A stretch of DNA of 64,000 bases, taken from Bacteroidaceae bacterium (lineage in GTDB: Bacteria; Bacillota_I; Bacilli_A; RFN20; CAG-826). The DNA lies in NCBI GenBank assembly GCA_963624045.1, contig CAVFNI010000006.1, forward strand, positions 6,166 to 70,165, read 5' to 3'. Position numbers and translations under genes: made by a program. Under the pieces are notes generated by a model, which saw only the letters and a program-made list of their open reading frames with translations, made no database searches and was not told the origin of the DNA. Shown one piece after another: positions 1 to 57,835 of this stretch (positions are counted from its first letter, which is position 1; each line of letters begins with the position of its first letter).

Positions 1-40
1 GCCTTGTAAGGGCGATGCTCTCCCGCTGAGCTAAGCATCC
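1..40 (-). tRNA. Partial tRNA-Val (anticodon TAC), 5' portion only. The gene runs off the window start.
   Basis: Reverse complement reads GGATGCT-TA-GCTC-AGCGGGA-GAGC-A-TCGCC-CTTACAA-GGCG: acceptor arm, D arm and anticodon arm with loop CTTACAA. It resembles B. subtilis tRNA-Val(UAC). A TTGACG-17-TATATT promoter lies about 30 nt upstream on the same strand. Confidence 0.5.
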
Positions 41-5807: not shown

Positions 5808-6107
5808 GAAATTGATAAATGAGATGAATATTTGGGAAGAAGGAACCCGTAAAGAAGAAAAAATCCCCCTACGTTTGGTAAGAGGTTTCAGCTTCAAGCT
5901 CCGGAGTTCCATTTTTCTTTCCGGAAGAAAACTCTAACAAGGAAAGGGGACGGAAACAATCATTTTTTATAAACGATTTTCGACCTCAAAAATATTTTCC
6001 AAACCTCTTTCCAAAGGAAAGGGGAGGCAAGATGAAAGATGTAACCAAAAATGAAAGTGCTTTCACCACCAAAGGGGGTGGTTTTCTTTTAAAATTAGGC
6101 AGTCGAA

Positions 6108-6173
6108 GTCGTATATGCCGGTAATATGGTCCAGCAGTCTCTACGCCCTCTCCTCAAAACTGGGCACTACGAC
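6108..6173 (+). ncRNA. Purine (guanine-type) riboswitch-like aptamer upstream of the PbuG-like permease.
   Basis: P1 GUCGUA/UACGAC. The P2 loop UAAUAUGGU is identical to pbuE/xpt L2. J2/3 is GUCUCUAC and J3/1 is ...CACUA. P3 has a non-canonical loop. Total 66 nt. Confidence 0.45.
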
Positions 6174-6188
6174 GAAAATCCCTAGGAG

Positions 6189-6214
6189 CGAAACGGCAGC
6201 TCTTTCGGCTTTTT
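6189..6214 (+). terminator. Terminator of the riboswitch expression platform.
   Basis: CGAAA-cggcagctc-TTTCG GC TTTTTG. Confidence 0.4.
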
Positions 6215-48046: not shown

Positions 48047-48390
48047 GGAGCATCCGGCCCGATAAGCCATGTTCTGTCGAGGGCGAACATTCATCTCAGG
48101 TTTCCCTGGAAGGGTCGTCTTCATTTGGATTTCCCTTCTTCCCCTACCAAATTTGGGTTTCTCGCTTGTGGGGTTTACCGCGTTTCACCTTGTTGTCGCC
48201 AACAAGCTCGTCTCTGTGGCACCTTGGGGAGAATCGTCTACGGGAGACTCCTCTCACGCCGTCACGCGCTCCGGGCGTGCCTAGGCTTATTGATTAACCT
48301 AGCGCAATCACTACATCCGTCGCAGGATGTGCGAGCATGGACTTTCCTCTGGTTTCCCAGCGGTCGCCTGGGCCGGATTAGCCGCTTCGT
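48047..48390 (-). ncRNA. rnpB: RNase P RNA, type B (Bacillus-type).
   Basis: Reverse complement contains AGAGGAAAGUCCAUGCUCGCAC (P4 region, identical to B. subtilis), a P3 hairpin CCCAGgcgaccgCUGGG, ends able to form P1, and the second P4 strand near the 3' end. Lies between the gpsB-like gene and pgsA. Confidence 0.85.
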
Positions 48391-48782: not shown

Positions 48783-48881
48783 GGCGCCCTTAAATTATAT
48801 TTAAGCCCTTCTTAGCTTACAAGCACTCAAAACGTCAGCCATATAGGCAAAGAAGCGATGATGGACTAAAATGTGATCGAT

Positions 48882-49607
48882 ATGAAAATTCTTAACAAGG
48901 CCATCAAAAACGCCGATTGTCTCGTCTTCATGGATTTGGAGGCGACCGCTCTCAGCCATGAATTGATTGAAATCGGCGCTTACCGCGTGCTTTTACATGA
49001 CGATGGCACACCGAAGAAAATCCACCTTCCTTTCAAGCGCTACGTCAAAGCGAAATCGCCTATTGGCAAAATCGTCGTCGATATGACCGGCATCACCGAA
49101 GAAATGCTAAAACGAAATGCCATTCCTTTTGAAAAAGCCATGGAGGATTTTCGTGATTATGTAGGCAATTATTGGAAAAGCGCCCGTTTTTTGACCTTTG
49201 GCCCTCACGATATGGTGATCCTTCATTCCACGATGGCCATTAATCGCGATGCCAACCCCGAATTCGTAAGGCATATTTCCGGCCGTTATTTGGATTTTCA
49301 AGGCTTTTTAAGTCAATACATCCAAGACCGCAACGGCAATCCTTTATCTTTGTCCAATTACCTAAAAACATTTGAACTTTCTTTTGAAGGGCAAGAGCAT
49401 GACGCCTGCGCCGATGCTTATAACCTATATCGCCTATATGAATCGCTATTCAAACGAAAAGATATCTTGATTAAACAATACGAAATGACCTTATCGCATA
49501 ACCACAAATTGCCCACTCCTTTGAAAGAAGCCTTCCGTCGCTTAAATGAGGGGGAAGATCTGACGGTGGAAAAATGGCGCAAAGCCATCGGGGAGACCTT
49601 CGAATGA
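48882..49607 (+). CDS. DEDDh-family 3'-5' exonuclease (DnaQ/KapD-like).
   Basis: Exo I DLEAT, Exo III HDACADA. ATG at 48882; the ORF track uses a GTG at 48873. Confidence 0.75.
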   Translation: MKILNKAIKNADCLVFMDLEATALSHELIEIGAYRVLLHDDGTPKKIHLPFKRYVKAKSPIGKIVVDMTGITEEMLKRNAIPFEKAMEDFRDYVGNYWKSARFLTFGPHDMVILHSTMAINRDANPEFVRHISGRYLDFQGFLSQYIQDRNGNPLSLSNYLKTFELSFEGQEHDACADAYNLYRLYESLFKRKDILIKQYEMTLSHNHKLPTPLKEAFRRLNEGEDLTVEKWRKAIGETFE

Positions 49608-50224
49608 ACATCCACTATCCGCCAGGCATCCATCCAAAAGCAAAGGCCAATATCGAATCAAAAGGAAAAAAAATAAGCCCTTTAAAGGGACGCCGCATCT
49701 ATAGCGCGGCTAACCGCGGTCAATCTTTCGAAGACGACATTAACGAAACCAATGAATATTATCGCGAAAATGATTTGGCCATCGTCTATAAAAGGCCCAC
49801 TCCTATCAATATCGTCAAGGTTGATTATTCCCAAGGCGCCATCATCACCAAAGCGTATTTCGAAACGCAAAGCACCACTGATTATAACGGTGTCATTCAA
49901 GGAAAATATGTTGATTTCGAAGCCAAAAGCACCCACTCAAAAACCTCCTTGCCGCTCAATAACATCGCTAAGCAGCAAATAACGCACCTTGAAGCCGTAA
50001 TCAGAAACGGAGGCATCGCCTTCTTTTTAATCGAATTGACTTTGTTCTCCGAGGTTTATTTGTTGCCGGCCAAATATGTATGCGATTTTTATCGACAAAA
50101 GCCCCGCAAATCGATTCCCTTTTCCGAAATCAAGAAAAACGGGTACGCCGTTAAGGAAGGATATCGTCCGCGCATCGATTACCTACCCGTCGTTTTGGAA
50201 GTCTTCTTCCACCACAAACAATGA
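49604..50224 (+). CDS. recU: Holliday junction resolvase RecU.
   Basis: Motifs YKRPTPI, DYNGVIQGKYVDFEAK and FFLIE. ATGA overlap with the upstream exonuclease gene. Confidence 0.88.
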   Translation: MNIHYPPGIHPKAKANIESKGKKISPLKGRRIYSAANRGQSFEDDINETNEYYRENDLAIVYKRPTPINIVKVDYSQGAIITKAYFETQSTTDYNGVIQGKYVDFEAKSTHSKTSLPLNNIAKQQITHLEAVIRNGGIAFFLIELTLFSEVYLLPAKYVCDFYRQKPRKSIPFSEIKKNGYAVKEGYRPRIDYLPVVLEVFFHHKQ

Positions 50225-50826
50225 TCTTTGAGCCCGCATTCGTCGCATTTCGGCTTAACGGCCGTGCAAATATTTCGCCCAAAGGCAATTAAGGCGTGAT
50301 GCAAAAATGCTCTTTCTTCGGACGGGAAAGATTTCTCTAAAATACGCTCGATTTGCAATGGATTTTCGTTTTTTCGCGCATAACCAAGGCGTTTGGATAT
50401 CCTCGCTATGTGCGTGTCAACAGGCAAAAAGGGTTGCTTTGCCCTTTCTACCAAGAAGACGCCGGCGGTTTTTCTTCCGACGCCCGGCAAAGCGATAAGT
50501 TTCTCTCGGTCAAAAGGGATAAGACCATGATATTCGCTTTCAAGCCTTTGCGATAAATTGAGAAGGTTTTTGGCTTTGTTATGGTATAGCCCGAGGCTTT
50601 TGATCAATTCTTCGATATCGGCAAGGGAGGCTTTTGACATCGCCAAAGACGAAGGATAACGAGCAAAGAGATTGCCGCTCACCTTATTAACGGCAGCATC
50701 GGTAGTTTGAGCGCTCAAAACAATGGCCACTAAACACTCGAAATCGTTATGAAAGAGAAGTTCGCAATGAGCGTCATGGAAACGCGCATGCAAATAAGAA
50801 GAAACGTCTTGACTCTTTTTTGTCAA
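50179..50826 (-). CDS. nth: Endonuclease III.
   Basis: HhH-GPD plus 4Fe-4S cluster loop CTAVKPKCDECGLKDHC. Confidence 0.92.
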   Translation of the reverse strand: MTKKSQDVSSYLHARFHDAHCELLFHNDFECLVAIVLSAQTTDAAVNKVSGNLFARYPSSLAMSKASLADIEELIKSLGLYHNKAKNLLNLSQRLESEYHGLIPFDREKLIALPGVGRKTAGVFLVERAKQPFLPVDTHIARISKRLGYARKNENPLQIERILEKSFPSEERAFLHHALIAFGRNICTAVKPKCDECGLKDHCLWWKKTSKTTGR

Positions 50827-50827
50827 C

Positions 50828-51487
50828 TCATTCCCCCCACATGCTTTTGGTTAAAGCGATGGTCGCTTCGATGTCTTTATCCCAATTGTCGTTGATTGCG
50901 CTAGCCCCTTCCTTGAGAAGATCGTTTTCCTTGCGGCGGGCTTTAAGAGTCTTCTCGACGGCCCGAATGGTTTTCTTGCCGCTTTTGATGGTATCTAGCA
51001 AAGCGTTCTTAATTTCATCCACCGAATATGAAGAATTAAGCCATTCGGAAATAGTATCCCTCTCTAGCGGAGATAAAGTGCGGGATAGGCGTTCTTCGAA
51101 AAAGGAAAGCAAGCCCGAAAGAAGATTGGCCTCGTTCTCGCCCACTAACGATAGACGTTGCCTCTCTAATGTATCGGCGAAGATGGCATAACATTTTTCT
51201 CTTAGCGGAGCAATTGAGGTTTCCATCTTCTCTTTCATAGCGAAGGTAAGGAAGCCTCGCTTAAGCATCGAATCCATCAACTTGTTGATCTCACTAGGGC
51301 TTTTGCCCATCTTCAAAGAAAGCATGTCGGCGTTGATGAAATGATTGCCTTGTTCTAAAAGGTGATCGATCATGAGGACCACAATCGCTTCTTCGTCACT
51401 AAGTCCTATTTTCTTATATGTCTCCAAGAGAACATAAGCAAAAGGAACGGCGTTTTGATAGGGATTTTTCATATTTGTCCTTTCCAT
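50828..51487 (-). CDS. dnaD: DNA replication protein DnaD.
   Basis: DnaD_dom C-terminal motif (LSPLE...ISEWL..SYS.DEIKNAL). Upstream of nth, as in B. subtilis. Confidence 0.8.
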   Translation of the reverse strand: MERTNMKNPYQNAVPFAYVLLETYKKIGLSDEEAIVVLMIDHLLEQGNHFINADMLSLKMGKSPSEINKLMDSMLKRGFLTFAMKEKMETSIAPLREKCYAIFADTLERQRLSLVGENEANLLSGLLSFFEERLSRTLSPLERDTISEWLNSSYSVDEIKNALLDTIKSGKKTIRAVEKTLKARRKENDLLKEGASAINDNWDKDIEATIALTKSMWGE

Positions 51488-52089
51488 CCTTTCTTCCTTT
51501 CTTCATCTAATTTAGCAGGAGATATTTCCTTTAGAAGAGGTCTTAATTCCATGATTGCTCGAGCACTGTCTTGATCCAAAACAAATCCAAGCGAAGAGGC
51601 GAAACGTTCTGCTCTAGCGATTCGCAAGGGGTCTTCTTTGATACGCAAATATGGGTCGCCGATAAAACGAATTATTCCCTCTTGCAAATCATCCATCCCA
51701 TGGTGGTAATCCAGAACGCGATAGTCCTTATCTAAATACAGTGCGTTGATGGTAAAATCACGTCGGCAAGAATCCTTTCGGGGGTCTTTGATGAAGAGAA
51801 TATCATCGGGATGACGGTGATCGGCGTATTCCCTTTCCTCGCGAAGCGTCGCTATGTCACAATGTCTATCAAGGATTTTTGTTTTCAAAACGCCATATTT
51901 AGCAAAAACACCATTAGCATCTGGCAAAAAAATAAGACTTTCCTTAGGCAAAGCATCGGTAACGAAATCAAAGTCATGAACTTCCTTATTGAGCAAATAA
52001 TCCCGTACCGATCCGCCGACTAAATAAAGAGAAAATCCCTTCCGGGAATATATTTCATTAAGATAATCAAAAACCGGCAAGCGCTTCAT
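51469..52089 (-). CDS. Short class-II nucleotidyltransferase (CCA-adding / poly(A) polymerase head-and-neck only), 206 aa.
   Basis: Motifs GGxVRD (LVGGSVRDYLL), DxD (HDFDF), RRD (RRDFTINALY) and ED/ERxxR (EDPLRIARAERFA) are present. There are no body/tail domains, and the ORF ends overlapping the dnaD start. Confidence 0.7.
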   Translation of the reverse strand: MKRLPVFDYLNEIYSRKGFSLYLVGGSVRDYLLNKEVHDFDFVTDALPKESLIFLPDANGVFAKYGVLKTKILDRHCDIATLREEREYADHRHPDDILFIKDPRKDSCRRDFTINALYLDKDYRVLDYHHGMDDLQEGIIRFIGDPYLRIKEDPLRIARAERFASSLGFVLDQDSARAIMELRPLLKEISPAKLDEERKKGWKGQI

Positions 52090-52125
52090 AAAGATATTTT
52101 AGCATGCTCAAAAGGAAAGCTCATT

Positions 52126-52154
52126 CGAAAGAAAAGGCCCCGCGTAGCGGAGCC
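52126..52154 (-). terminator. Intrinsic terminator after hup.
   Basis: Minus strand: GGCTCCGC-tac-GCGGGGCC followed by TTTTCTTTCG. Confidence 0.65.
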
Positions 52155-52179
52155 TGAGTGTTCAACTTCTTTAAAACAA

Positions 52180-54957: not shown

Positions 54958-55151
54958 TCTAGCCGTTTTTCTTGGCTCTAAAAAGACTCATGTCGCTTTT
55001 GTCAAAACCATTTTTATAAAGGCGTTTGTCAATGAAAATTTAAAACGAGAAATTTGATGCTTCGGGAACGATTTCGAACCGAAACACTCAAAAAAGTATA
55101 TTGAATTTTCAGATAGACCCATCTAACACCCTAATTAGAAGAAATGAAGAT

Positions 55152-56588
55152 ATGAAAATTATCGGCAGGAAGAAAGAAAACGAAGAATTAATGCGTCTCT
55201 ACAAAAGCGGCAAACCAGAATTGGTAGCCGTTTATGGTCGTAGAAGAGTTGGCAAAACATTTCTTATCAACGCCTTGTTCGCCGGCAAAATAACCTTTTC
55301 TCATACTGGGGTCTCCCCCGACGACTTAGCAAAATCGGGTGAAAAGAAAATGAAGCTCCAATTGAGCGCATTCTATGGTTCTTTGCTTTCGCAAGGCATG
55401 CGGCCGAGCAAAAAACCTGGCTCTTGGATCGAAGCCTTAACTTTGCTGATCGAATTTTTGGAAAGCAAGAAAAACGGGCAAAGGCAGGTCGTCTTCATCG
55501 ACGAGCTACCATGGATCGATACCATCCGCTCTGATTTCATATCATCTTTCGGCTGGTTTTGGAATCAATGGGCTTGCAAGCAAAATGATCTGATGCTGAT
55601 CGTATGCGGTTCGGCGAATTCTTGGATCAATGGCCATCTGATTAACGCTCACGGTGGATTATATAATCGTCTGACTTATACCCTTCGCCTCACATCATTT
55701 TCATTAAAAGAATCGTTGGATTACCTTGCGAATAAAAACGCCAAAACAAGCAAATATAAAGTCGCGATAATCGACATGGTCCTCGGCGGGATACCATATT
55801 ACCTGGAATATTATCAAGAGAATCTATCGATAGAAGAAAACATCGATAACTTCTTTTTCAAAGATAATGCCAAGTTAAGATCCGAATTCAATAACCTTTT
55901 CAGTTCGACCTTCGCCGATGACAAATTAACAAAAAGAATAGTTATTGCCTTAGCCGGACGCAACAAAGGATATACGAGAAAAGAATTGTTGGAAGCTATA
56001 GGCGCATCCGATGGCGAAGCTATATCCAAATGCCTGGAAGCGCTTAAATATAGCGACTTCGTCATCGAATATGTTCCATTCATGGAAAAGAAAAACAAAA
56101 GATATTACAAGGTAGTAGACCCCTTTTGCTTCTTCTATCTCAAATTTGTCCATAACCAAAAGTCTTTGAACAAAGACATGTTCTTTGATTGCGAGAATTC
56201 CTCTTGGAGAGGGCTCGCTTTCGAAAACCTATGCCTCTATCATCTCAATGAAATCAAATCGGCACTTGGTATAAGGTCCGTTAACACCATCCAATTTTCA
56301 TGGTGCGCCAAAGAAAGCGCCGCTCTTCACGGAGCCCAAATAGACCTCCTAATCGAAAGAAAAGACAATATAATCTCTTTATGCGAGATGAAATTCTATA
56401 ACAAAGAATTCAAAGTGGATAAGCAATATCATTTAAACCTAATGAATAAAATCGAACAACTAGCTTCGCATTCTAAAAAGAAATACACCATTATCCCAAC
56501 GCTAATCACAACTTTCGGCTTGCAAAAAAGCGATTATTTCGATGATTTTGGGGCGGTCATAACGTTAGATGACCTCTTTATGGAATAA
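55152..56588 (+). CDS. AAA+ ATPase of the COG1672 type (archaeal-type ATPase domain plus DUF234).
   Basis: Walker A GRRRVGKT, Walker B VVFIDE, C-terminal DUF234-like region. Start uncertain: MKIIGRK at 55152, or the ORF-track start at 55101. Confidence 0.7.
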   Translation: MKIIGRKKENEELMRLYKSGKPELVAVYGRRRVGKTFLINALFAGKITFSHTGVSPDDLAKSGEKKMKLQLSAFYGSLLSQGMRPSKKPGSWIEALTLLIEFLESKKNGQRQVVFIDELPWIDTIRSDFISSFGWFWNQWACKQNDLMLIVCGSANSWINGHLINAHGGLYNRLTYTLRLTSFSLKESLDYLANKNAKTSKYKVAIIDMVLGGIPYYLEYYQENLSIEENIDNFFFKDNAKLRSEFNNLFSSTFADDKLTKRIVIALAGRNKGYTRKELLEAIGASDGEAISKCLEALKYSDFVIEYVPFMEKKNKRYYKVVDPFCFFYLKFVHNQKSLNKDMFFDCENSSWRGLAFENLCLYHLNEIKSALGIRSVNTIQFSWCAKESAALHGAQIDLLIERKDNIISLCEMKFYNKEFKVDKQYHLNLMNKIEQLASHSKKKYTIIPTLITTFGLQKSDYFDDFGAVITLDDLFME

Positions 56589-57656: not shown

Positions 57657-57798
57657 TCCTCCTGCTTCAGGAGGTAAAAGAAACGTTTTGGCCTCTCTTA
57701 TCCGGACTTTACCGTTGGCATCGGAATTGCGCCGATTCATGCTTTCGCTTGCGGGCTATACCGCCAGTCGGCGTATCTAACGCCGCCCTGAAGCGAAC
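57657..57798 (-). ncRNA. FMN riboswitch (RFN element) with an RBS-sequestering helix.
   Basis: Minus strand: CGCUUCAGGGCGG.GUUAGAUACGCCGACUGGCGGUAUAGCCCGCAAGCGAAAG ... GCCAACGGUAAAGUCCGGAUAAGAGAGGC. This matches the conserved RFN halves of the B. subtilis ribD leader (GGGGCAGGGUGAAAUUCCCGACCGGCGGUAGUAAAGC / CCGACAGUGAAAGUCUGGAUGGGAGAAGG). It is followed by ACCUCCUG-aag-CAGGAGG, which pairs with the SD. A TATAAT -10 sits just upstream. Confidence 0.8.
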
Positions 57799-57835
57799 AA
57801 ATTATACGCCAATTGCCAACGCAAAAGAAAAGGAA

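Follow-up and report, generated by a model that had tools for sequence, protein, structure and literature searches.

The window, as the 64,000-nucleotide stretch of DNA analysed here is called, encodes a class-II nucleotidyltransferase (NTase) limited to the head and neck domains, in an ORF of 206 amino acids with an ATG start (51469..52089, minus strand) that is the positional ortholog of cca. The usual CCA-adding enzymes of class II have the four-domain shape of a "seahorse", in which the body and tail, the very parts that are missing here, hold the tRNA. The catalytic core of the NTase is intact and under purifying selection, and its short length and synteny are conserved. Sequence comparison thus supports the view that the gene is not broken and that the short form, kept in a large group of as yet uncultured bacteria from gut and rumen, is likely a working minimal enzyme.

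The head of the NTase is a PolyA_pol domain (PF01743; residues 21–141, E = 2.6e-30), which is the sole Pfam match of the ORF, and among NCBIfam models PRK13299, the Firmicute CCA equivalog, ranks first, with 184.6 bits over profile positions 17–204 of 396, a score that lies under the equivalog cutoff of 290 bits. The PcnB models (TIGR01942/PRK11623) match more weakly than the CCA models (131 versus 185 bits) and their own cutoffs are not reached (131 bits against 305, and 111 bits against 702). In a gapless phmmer alignment to the PDB, NTase residues 15–200 correspond to residues 16–201 of the 404-residue Bacillus stearothermophilus (Bst) enzyme 1MIV, with an E-value of 7.9e-35.

The features by which a class-II CCA enzyme is recognized, namely a head with motif A, motifs B to E, and a flexible loop of full length, are all present in the ORF (the coordinates that follow are on the minus strand). 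Motif A (residues 25–41; 51967..52017) comprises GGSVRD at residues 25–30 and the catalytic DFD with Asp39 and Asp41; Gly25, Arg29, Asp30, Asp39, and Asp41 are invariant in 26 diverse and 48 close family members, and Asp78 provides the third carboxylate of the head. The flexible loop REYADHRHPD (residues 86–95; 51805..51834) is placed by the gapless 1MIV alignment on Bst Gly87–Glu96, the segment defined as the flexible loop in PMC2532741; it shows no deletion of the CC-adding type, and Tyr88, Asp90, Arg92, His93, and Pro94 are invariant in the family. Motif B, RRDFTINA (residues 109–116; 51742..51765), serves ribose recognition and retains Arg109, Arg110, Asp111, Thr113, and Asn115 without variation, while motif C reads DYHHGMDDL. 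[quoted passage not shown] The motif E region (residues 190–200; 51490..51522) is present, but carries a family-specific Arg-to-Lys change at residue 193.

An AF2 model of the NTase, built on 48 family sequences, has a pLDDT of 93.6, and its best Foldseek matches are 6QY6 and 1MIV, with an rmsd of 1.6–2.0 Å to the head and neck of these two structures. The TM-score is 0.84–0.85 on the query and 0.45–0.48 on the target; the latter value indicates that the model spans half of a canonical enzyme. The class-II catalytic core that the first-pass annotation had read in this ORF is therefore borne out, and its motifs and coordinates are confirmed.

The chain ends approximately six residues past motif E, inside the neck. 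This point corresponds to residue 201 in the 404-residue Bst enzyme, as located by the alignment to CCA/PAP enzymes that the first-pass annotation had proposed as a check, and the catalytic motifs are present in that alignment. The same annotation had described an ORF that ends after the neck, lacking the body and tail; the absence of the body and tail stands, but the stop falls within the neck, and sister forms of 220–235 aa carry the remainder. These sister forms make up a very abundant sub-family that keeps the rest of the neck (profile positions 205–232) and is also found upstream of dnaD. The NTase does without the tRNA-binding site of canonical enzymes, about 200 aa that comprise the last helix of the neck together with the body and tail. 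No Pfam domain is found past the head, and the body and tail domains PF12627 and PF13735, which bind the tRNA at its acceptor/T-arm and elbow, are absent from the ORF. The short-form family shows no compensating basic charge, with a median pI of 6.2.

The missing half was also sought elsewhere. In six-frame searches with a body/tail profile derived from 69 full-length enzymes, which detected the positive controls, neither the 64-kb window nor the ORFs of 20 related loci contained any body/tail-like coding sequence. The top sub-threshold matches fell on DnaD ORFs, but they were short, inconsistent across loci, and below 10 bits, so that DnaD was rejected as a disguised body/tail. A search with the C-terminal half of a related full-length cca (from locus L040, described below) as the query returned zero matches to stand-alone body/tail proteins; the same search did not retrieve close relatives of the query either. 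Within the 64-kb window, tblastn revealed no second PolyA_pol homologue, and the NTase is probably the only class-II enzyme in the genome.

The NTase gene is preceded by cmk, der, and hup and followed by dnaD and nth; the opposite strand there carries recU and the gene of a DEDD exonuclease. The dnaD ORF (DnaD_N and DnaB_2 domains; 50828..51487, minus strand) is translationally coupled to the NTase and probably starts at 51472, and nth, which encodes endonuclease III (50179..50826, minus strand), is the third gene of the NTase–dnaD–nth unit. The NTase stop codon TGA (51471..51469) lies inside the dnaD ORF, and the overlap of the stop with the dnaD start, already noted in the first-pass annotation, amounts to 19 nt if dnaD starts at its first ATG (51487) or to 4 nt (ATGA) if it starts at the second (51472); the 4-nt ATGA overlap is also used in the orthologous loci L001 and L003. 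The claim that the missing half is not encoded downstream proved correct as well, since the DNA that follows encodes a conserved DnaD in another frame and contains no body/tail remnant. The C-terminus of the NTase (GWKGQI and stop; 51469..51489, minus strand) includes Lys-Gly codons, AAAGGA, that make up a Shine–Dalgarno-like element, preceding the dnaD ATG (51472) by 5 nt. This element probably acts as the Shine–Dalgarno sequence of dnaD, and the conservation of the C-terminal K-G-W-K-G residues may be due in part to this double use as a ribosome-binding site. The slot occupied here by the NTase is, as we presume, that of asnS in the asnS–dnaD–nth operon of B. subtilis, a comparison made in the first-pass annotation; the more telling parallel is a full-length cca in the same slot of a relative (locus L040, described below).

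Upstream of the NTase, an extended −10-like box (TGCTAAAAT; 52096..52104, minus strand) lies 6 nt before the ATG, with no Shine–Dalgarno sequence, and comparable boxes are found in L001 (TGCTAAGAT) and in locus L011 (TGCTAAAAT); a simple promoter scan gave no support for the box at 52096..52104. It is possible that the NTase–dnaD–nth mRNA is leaderless, with its transcript start at the TGCTAAAAT box. A terminator-like hairpin after hup (52135..52155, minus strand), with a 9-bp stem of which 7 pairs are GC, followed by a T-rich tail, would part hup from the NTase–dnaD–nth unit.

Several other features of the window were recorded. The DEDD exonuclease gene (RNase_T family, KapD/DnaQ-like, 3'–5'; 48873–49607, plus strand) overlaps the start of recU (49574–50224, plus strand) and is conserved beside recU in all related loci; a tie of this exonuclease to RNA 3'-end turnover is speculation. 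A class B RNase P RNA (222.8 bits; 48058–48375, minus strand), at a distance of about 3 kb from the NTase, lies between pgsA and a gpsB/divIVA-like gene. An FMN riboswitch (57686–57799, minus strand) is located upstream of an ECF-type transporter-like ORF, and a purine riboswitch (6089–6189, plus strand) upstream of a xanthine/uracil permease gene. Between a ferredoxin gene and cmk, there is a 495-aa ATPase-like ORF (55101–56588, plus strand) with no counterpart at this place in L001, L003, and L005, which may be a strain- or species-specific insertion.

The relationship of the NTase to cca is made visible by locus L040, from a MAG of an uncultured member of the Bacilli, in which a 354-aa cca with PolyA_pol and tRNA_NucTran2_2 domains lies directly upstream of dnaD–nth. 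This full-length cca and the short forms have the lineage markers Asp78, Tyr118, and Pro154 in common, and in the L040 protein the Arg of motif E is kept and the Gly of residue 62 is lost. Because a cca that bears the body and tail occupies the same slot, the NTase ORF is by position an ortholog of cca that has been stripped of its tRNA-binding half.

The short form is not peculiar to one genome. In a search of 5.8 billion proteins, the best 120 clusters were 51–100% identical to the NTase and 117 of these 120 were 195–216 aa in length; more than 110 protein clusters at 51–84% identity are all within this range. The ORF has 206 aa in all seven independent assemblies of the window's species. 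The order cmk–der–hup–NTase–dnaD–nth|recU–exonuclease is kept in each of the 14 short-form loci that could be read, at NTase identities down to about 41%; these loci include GTDB representative MAGs from rumen and gut labelled Bacilli or Erysipelotrichia bacterium, labels that are those of the submitters. A pattern scan of genome contigs gave, among the matches listed, mostly gammaproteobacterial full-length enzymes and at least about 10 short-form MAGs, and the window's own species is not among the matches listed in that scan. Among 48 close members, 48 positions are invariant, including every catalytic and templating residue. Synonymous divergence is saturated (pS 0.74–0.92, against pN 0.25–0.34), dN/dS is approximately 0.13 where computable, and the NTase diverges at about the rate of its housekeeping neighbours. 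The first-pass annotation had left a choice between a decayed cca gene and a genuinely minimal NTase, and had suggested that conservation of the short form in relatives be examined. With length, synteny, and catalytic residues kept in over 100 clusters down to about 40% identity, and with purifying selection, the decayed gene is rejected and the minimal NTase is supported. A sequencing frameshift was ruled out by the same length in independent assemblies together with the conserved DnaD in the other frame downstream.

The tRNA genes sampled beside the family encode their own 3' ends. In all eight tRNA genes examined, the CCA is encoded. Six of these come from the window's own species and lie on a contig that is 99.4% identical to the window and extends past its left edge, all of them ending in CCA; the other two, sampled in other family-bearing loci, do likewise. 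A tRNA-Val gene is cut by the left edge of the window (1–39), and a Val–Tyr–Gln–Lys–Leu tRNA cluster just outside it (L090, 11670–12109), with spacings of 3–25 nt, has encoded CCA throughout. As the CCA is encoded in the tRNA genes sampled (n = 8), only 3'-end repair would be needed. In the Mollicutes, which are related to the short-form group, the CCA is part of every tRNA gene and cca has been lost entirely (Grosjean et al. 2014, PMC4014445).

The reading that we favour, with a little better than even confidence, is that the NTase is a minimal, low-affinity nucleotidyltransferase for tRNA 3'-end repair. In this scheme, the cca ortholog carried by a clade of host-associated, as yet uncultured Bacilli would have lost the tRNA-anchoring body and tail, and in the sub-clade of the window's ORF the last neck helix as well, leaving a nucleotidyltransferase that presumably still works and has a CCA-type CTP/ATP pocket. 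The probable need would be restricted to restoring nibbled 3' ends, mainly A76 and perhaps C75, by distributive, low-affinity action on a single-stranded NCC overhang entering the head–neck cleft. We infer that tRNA is still the substrate, that its ends are repaired and the CCA is not built de novo, and that no partner is needed. [quoted passage not shown] Weak tRNA binding and a distributive mode of action are features of modern class-II enzymes, in which tight binding favours the reverse reaction, the removal of CCA (PMC9728577). Since weak binding is thus already normal in class-II enzymes and the CCA is encoded, loss of the anchoring domains is plausible. Against repair count the role of the body and tail as the tRNA-binding site of known enzymes (PMC3925840), the lack of compensating basic charge (median pI 6.2), the substitutions at residues 62 and 193, and the fusions to Peptidase_M19 and GT2 described below, which are not RNA-related domains; the literature searched yielded no experiment showing activity of the head and neck alone.

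The head–neck module occurs in a wider family, in which an exhaustive search of representatives and an NJ tree placed nearly all class-II proteins of 200–235 aa in one group. The same module is fused at the C-terminus to Peptidase_M19 (membrane dipeptidase/amidohydrolase) in proteins of about 547 aa, as in locus L007 (1070–2713), where the fusion occupies the syntenic slot dapB–[NTase::M19]–dnaD–nth–ponA–recU, and in P0132 it is fused to a family-2 (GT2) glycosyltransferase. The HxD metal motif of M19 is intact in four representatives (P0157, P0130, P0155, and P0190), whereas M19 is degenerate in P0140, P0144, and P0185 and the HxD motif has been lost in several fusions, with the NTase part staying conserved. 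The family is further marked by two diagnostic residues. Residue 62 (Phe62; 51904–51906), near the primer-positioning region, is Phe or Tyr in all forms that lack the body and tail, in contrast to a Gly conserved in 99% of 69 canonical enzymes, and residue 193 (Lys193; 51511–51513) is Lys in 99–100% of these forms, in contrast to Arg in 99% of the 69 full-length enzymes. The two substitutions could reflect a changed substrate.

These features favour the best of the alternatives, a rather unlikely one on balance, in which the head and neck, freed from the tRNA anchor, were neofunctionalised and act on something besides tRNA CCA ends, either by untethered tailing of other RNA 3' ends or by nucleotidylation of a non-RNA acceptor tied to the M19 and GT2 activities. 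Tailing of other RNA 3' ends is an option because the C-terminal part restricts the class-II core to CCA addition; a PAP core joined to a CCA C-terminus gives a CCA-adding enzyme, so that the C-terminal part sets the reaction (PMC2532741). The changes at residues 62 and 193 affect positions that are otherwise invariant, and the fusions to M19 and GT2 are repeated. The invariant loop, spring, and template are, however, specific to ordered C-then-A addition to RNA, and the positional orthology with cca likewise argues against a new substrate. M19 is degenerate or lost in many members in which the NTase is conserved, which indicates that the function of the NTase is independent of M19. Neither the NTase ORF nor the M19 fusion matched any model of PADLOC-DB; this result also speaks against neofunctionalisation, and a defence-system reading was rejected on it.

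A phage origin was likewise considered and rejected, as the matches in PHROG and BFVD prove to be tRNA nucleotidyltransferases of the ordinary kind, and the resemblance to short NTases of phages is only remote. Short phage proteins annotated as tRNA nucleotidyltransferases do occur (phrog_24229, with a profile length of 245, and BFVD entries of 170–230 aa), and the BFVD entries match the short-form family only as remote structures, at 10–17% identity.

A two-piece enzyme, in which the short catalytic subunit is served by the product of another gene for tRNA binding (a detached body/tail or else an RNA-binding protein of unrelated origin), would satisfy the canonical mechanism, in which the acceptor/T-arm has to be held by the body and tail (PMC3925840), and would suit a short form that has gained no extra positive charge. 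This arrangement is nonetheless improbable: the 69-region body/tail profile was blank across the window and the 20 related loci, its weak DnaD matches were spurious, and no conserved neighbour of unknown function stands beside the NTase gene. That the ORF is a non-functional remnant on the way to a Mollicutes-type loss of cca, or the product of a sequencing or assembly frameshift, deserves almost no credence, for although the Mollicutes lost cca and the encoded CCA makes the enzyme dispensable in principle, length, synteny, and catalytic residues are kept across hundreds of independent assemblies, purifying selection is strong, the AF2 fold is confident, and the downstream DNA is conserved dnaD with no trace of a body/tail.

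Under the favoured repair reading, the short form would be an intermediate between an entire cca and the gene's complete loss, as in the Mollicutes, and it has a bearing on the recent result that class-II enzymes benefit from binding tRNA weakly. A widespread catalytic half under purifying selection would amount to a natural test of the head and neck acting alone. We hold only as a tentative proposition, somewhat doubtful as it stands, that the family performs self-sufficient CCA/A76 repair with no tRNA anchor or else uses a new substrate marked by the M19 and GT2 fusions; if true, a self-sufficient repair enzyme would mean that the 3' end of a tRNA can be recognized without the body and tail. 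The full-text literature searched contained no account of a naturally occurring class-II enzyme made of head and neck only, and family members are annotated as "hypothetical protein" or "CCA tRNA nucleotidyltransferase" in the source databases; given these annotations, a dedicated family model is warranted for the short form.

Among known systems, the class-II CCA enzymes of the Bacillota (1MIV; 6QY6 from Planococcus halocryophilus; PRK13299) have the head and neck fold, motifs A–E, the flexible loop, and the EDxxR and RRD template in common with the NTase, which differs from them by Phe62 in place of Gly, Lys193 in place of the Arg of motif E, Tyr118, and Pro154. PcnB (poly(A) polymerase I; 3AQK–3AQN), the second-best match in both sequence and structure, has a homologous head and neck with the same template motif; however, it possesses body and leg domains of its own and a dispensable flexible loop, whereas the NTase has no C-terminal domains and an invariant loop. 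The 191-aa stand-alone protein NP_344798.1 of S. pneumoniae (2LA3), titled in the PDB as the head domain of a CCA-adding enzyme, is, like the NTase, a small protein of the Bacillota organized around a head that resembles that of CCA enzymes, but it is a remote structural match (15% identity, TM approximately 0.5, E = 4e-3) and belongs to a different family.

The CC-adders and A-adders, class-II enzymes with restricted or partial activities, set an earlier example of a CCA function that is divided or cut back, although they are full-length four-domain proteins, unlike the NTase. The CC-adders carry a deletion in the flexible loop, which is intact in the NTase, and the restriction of the A-adders is due to the C-terminal region, which the NTase does not have. 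The Mollicutes are reduced-genome relatives of the Bacillota and, like the NTase clade, have a relaxed need for de novo CCA synthesis; they deleted cca, whereas the NTase clade has kept the catalytic half under purifying selection.
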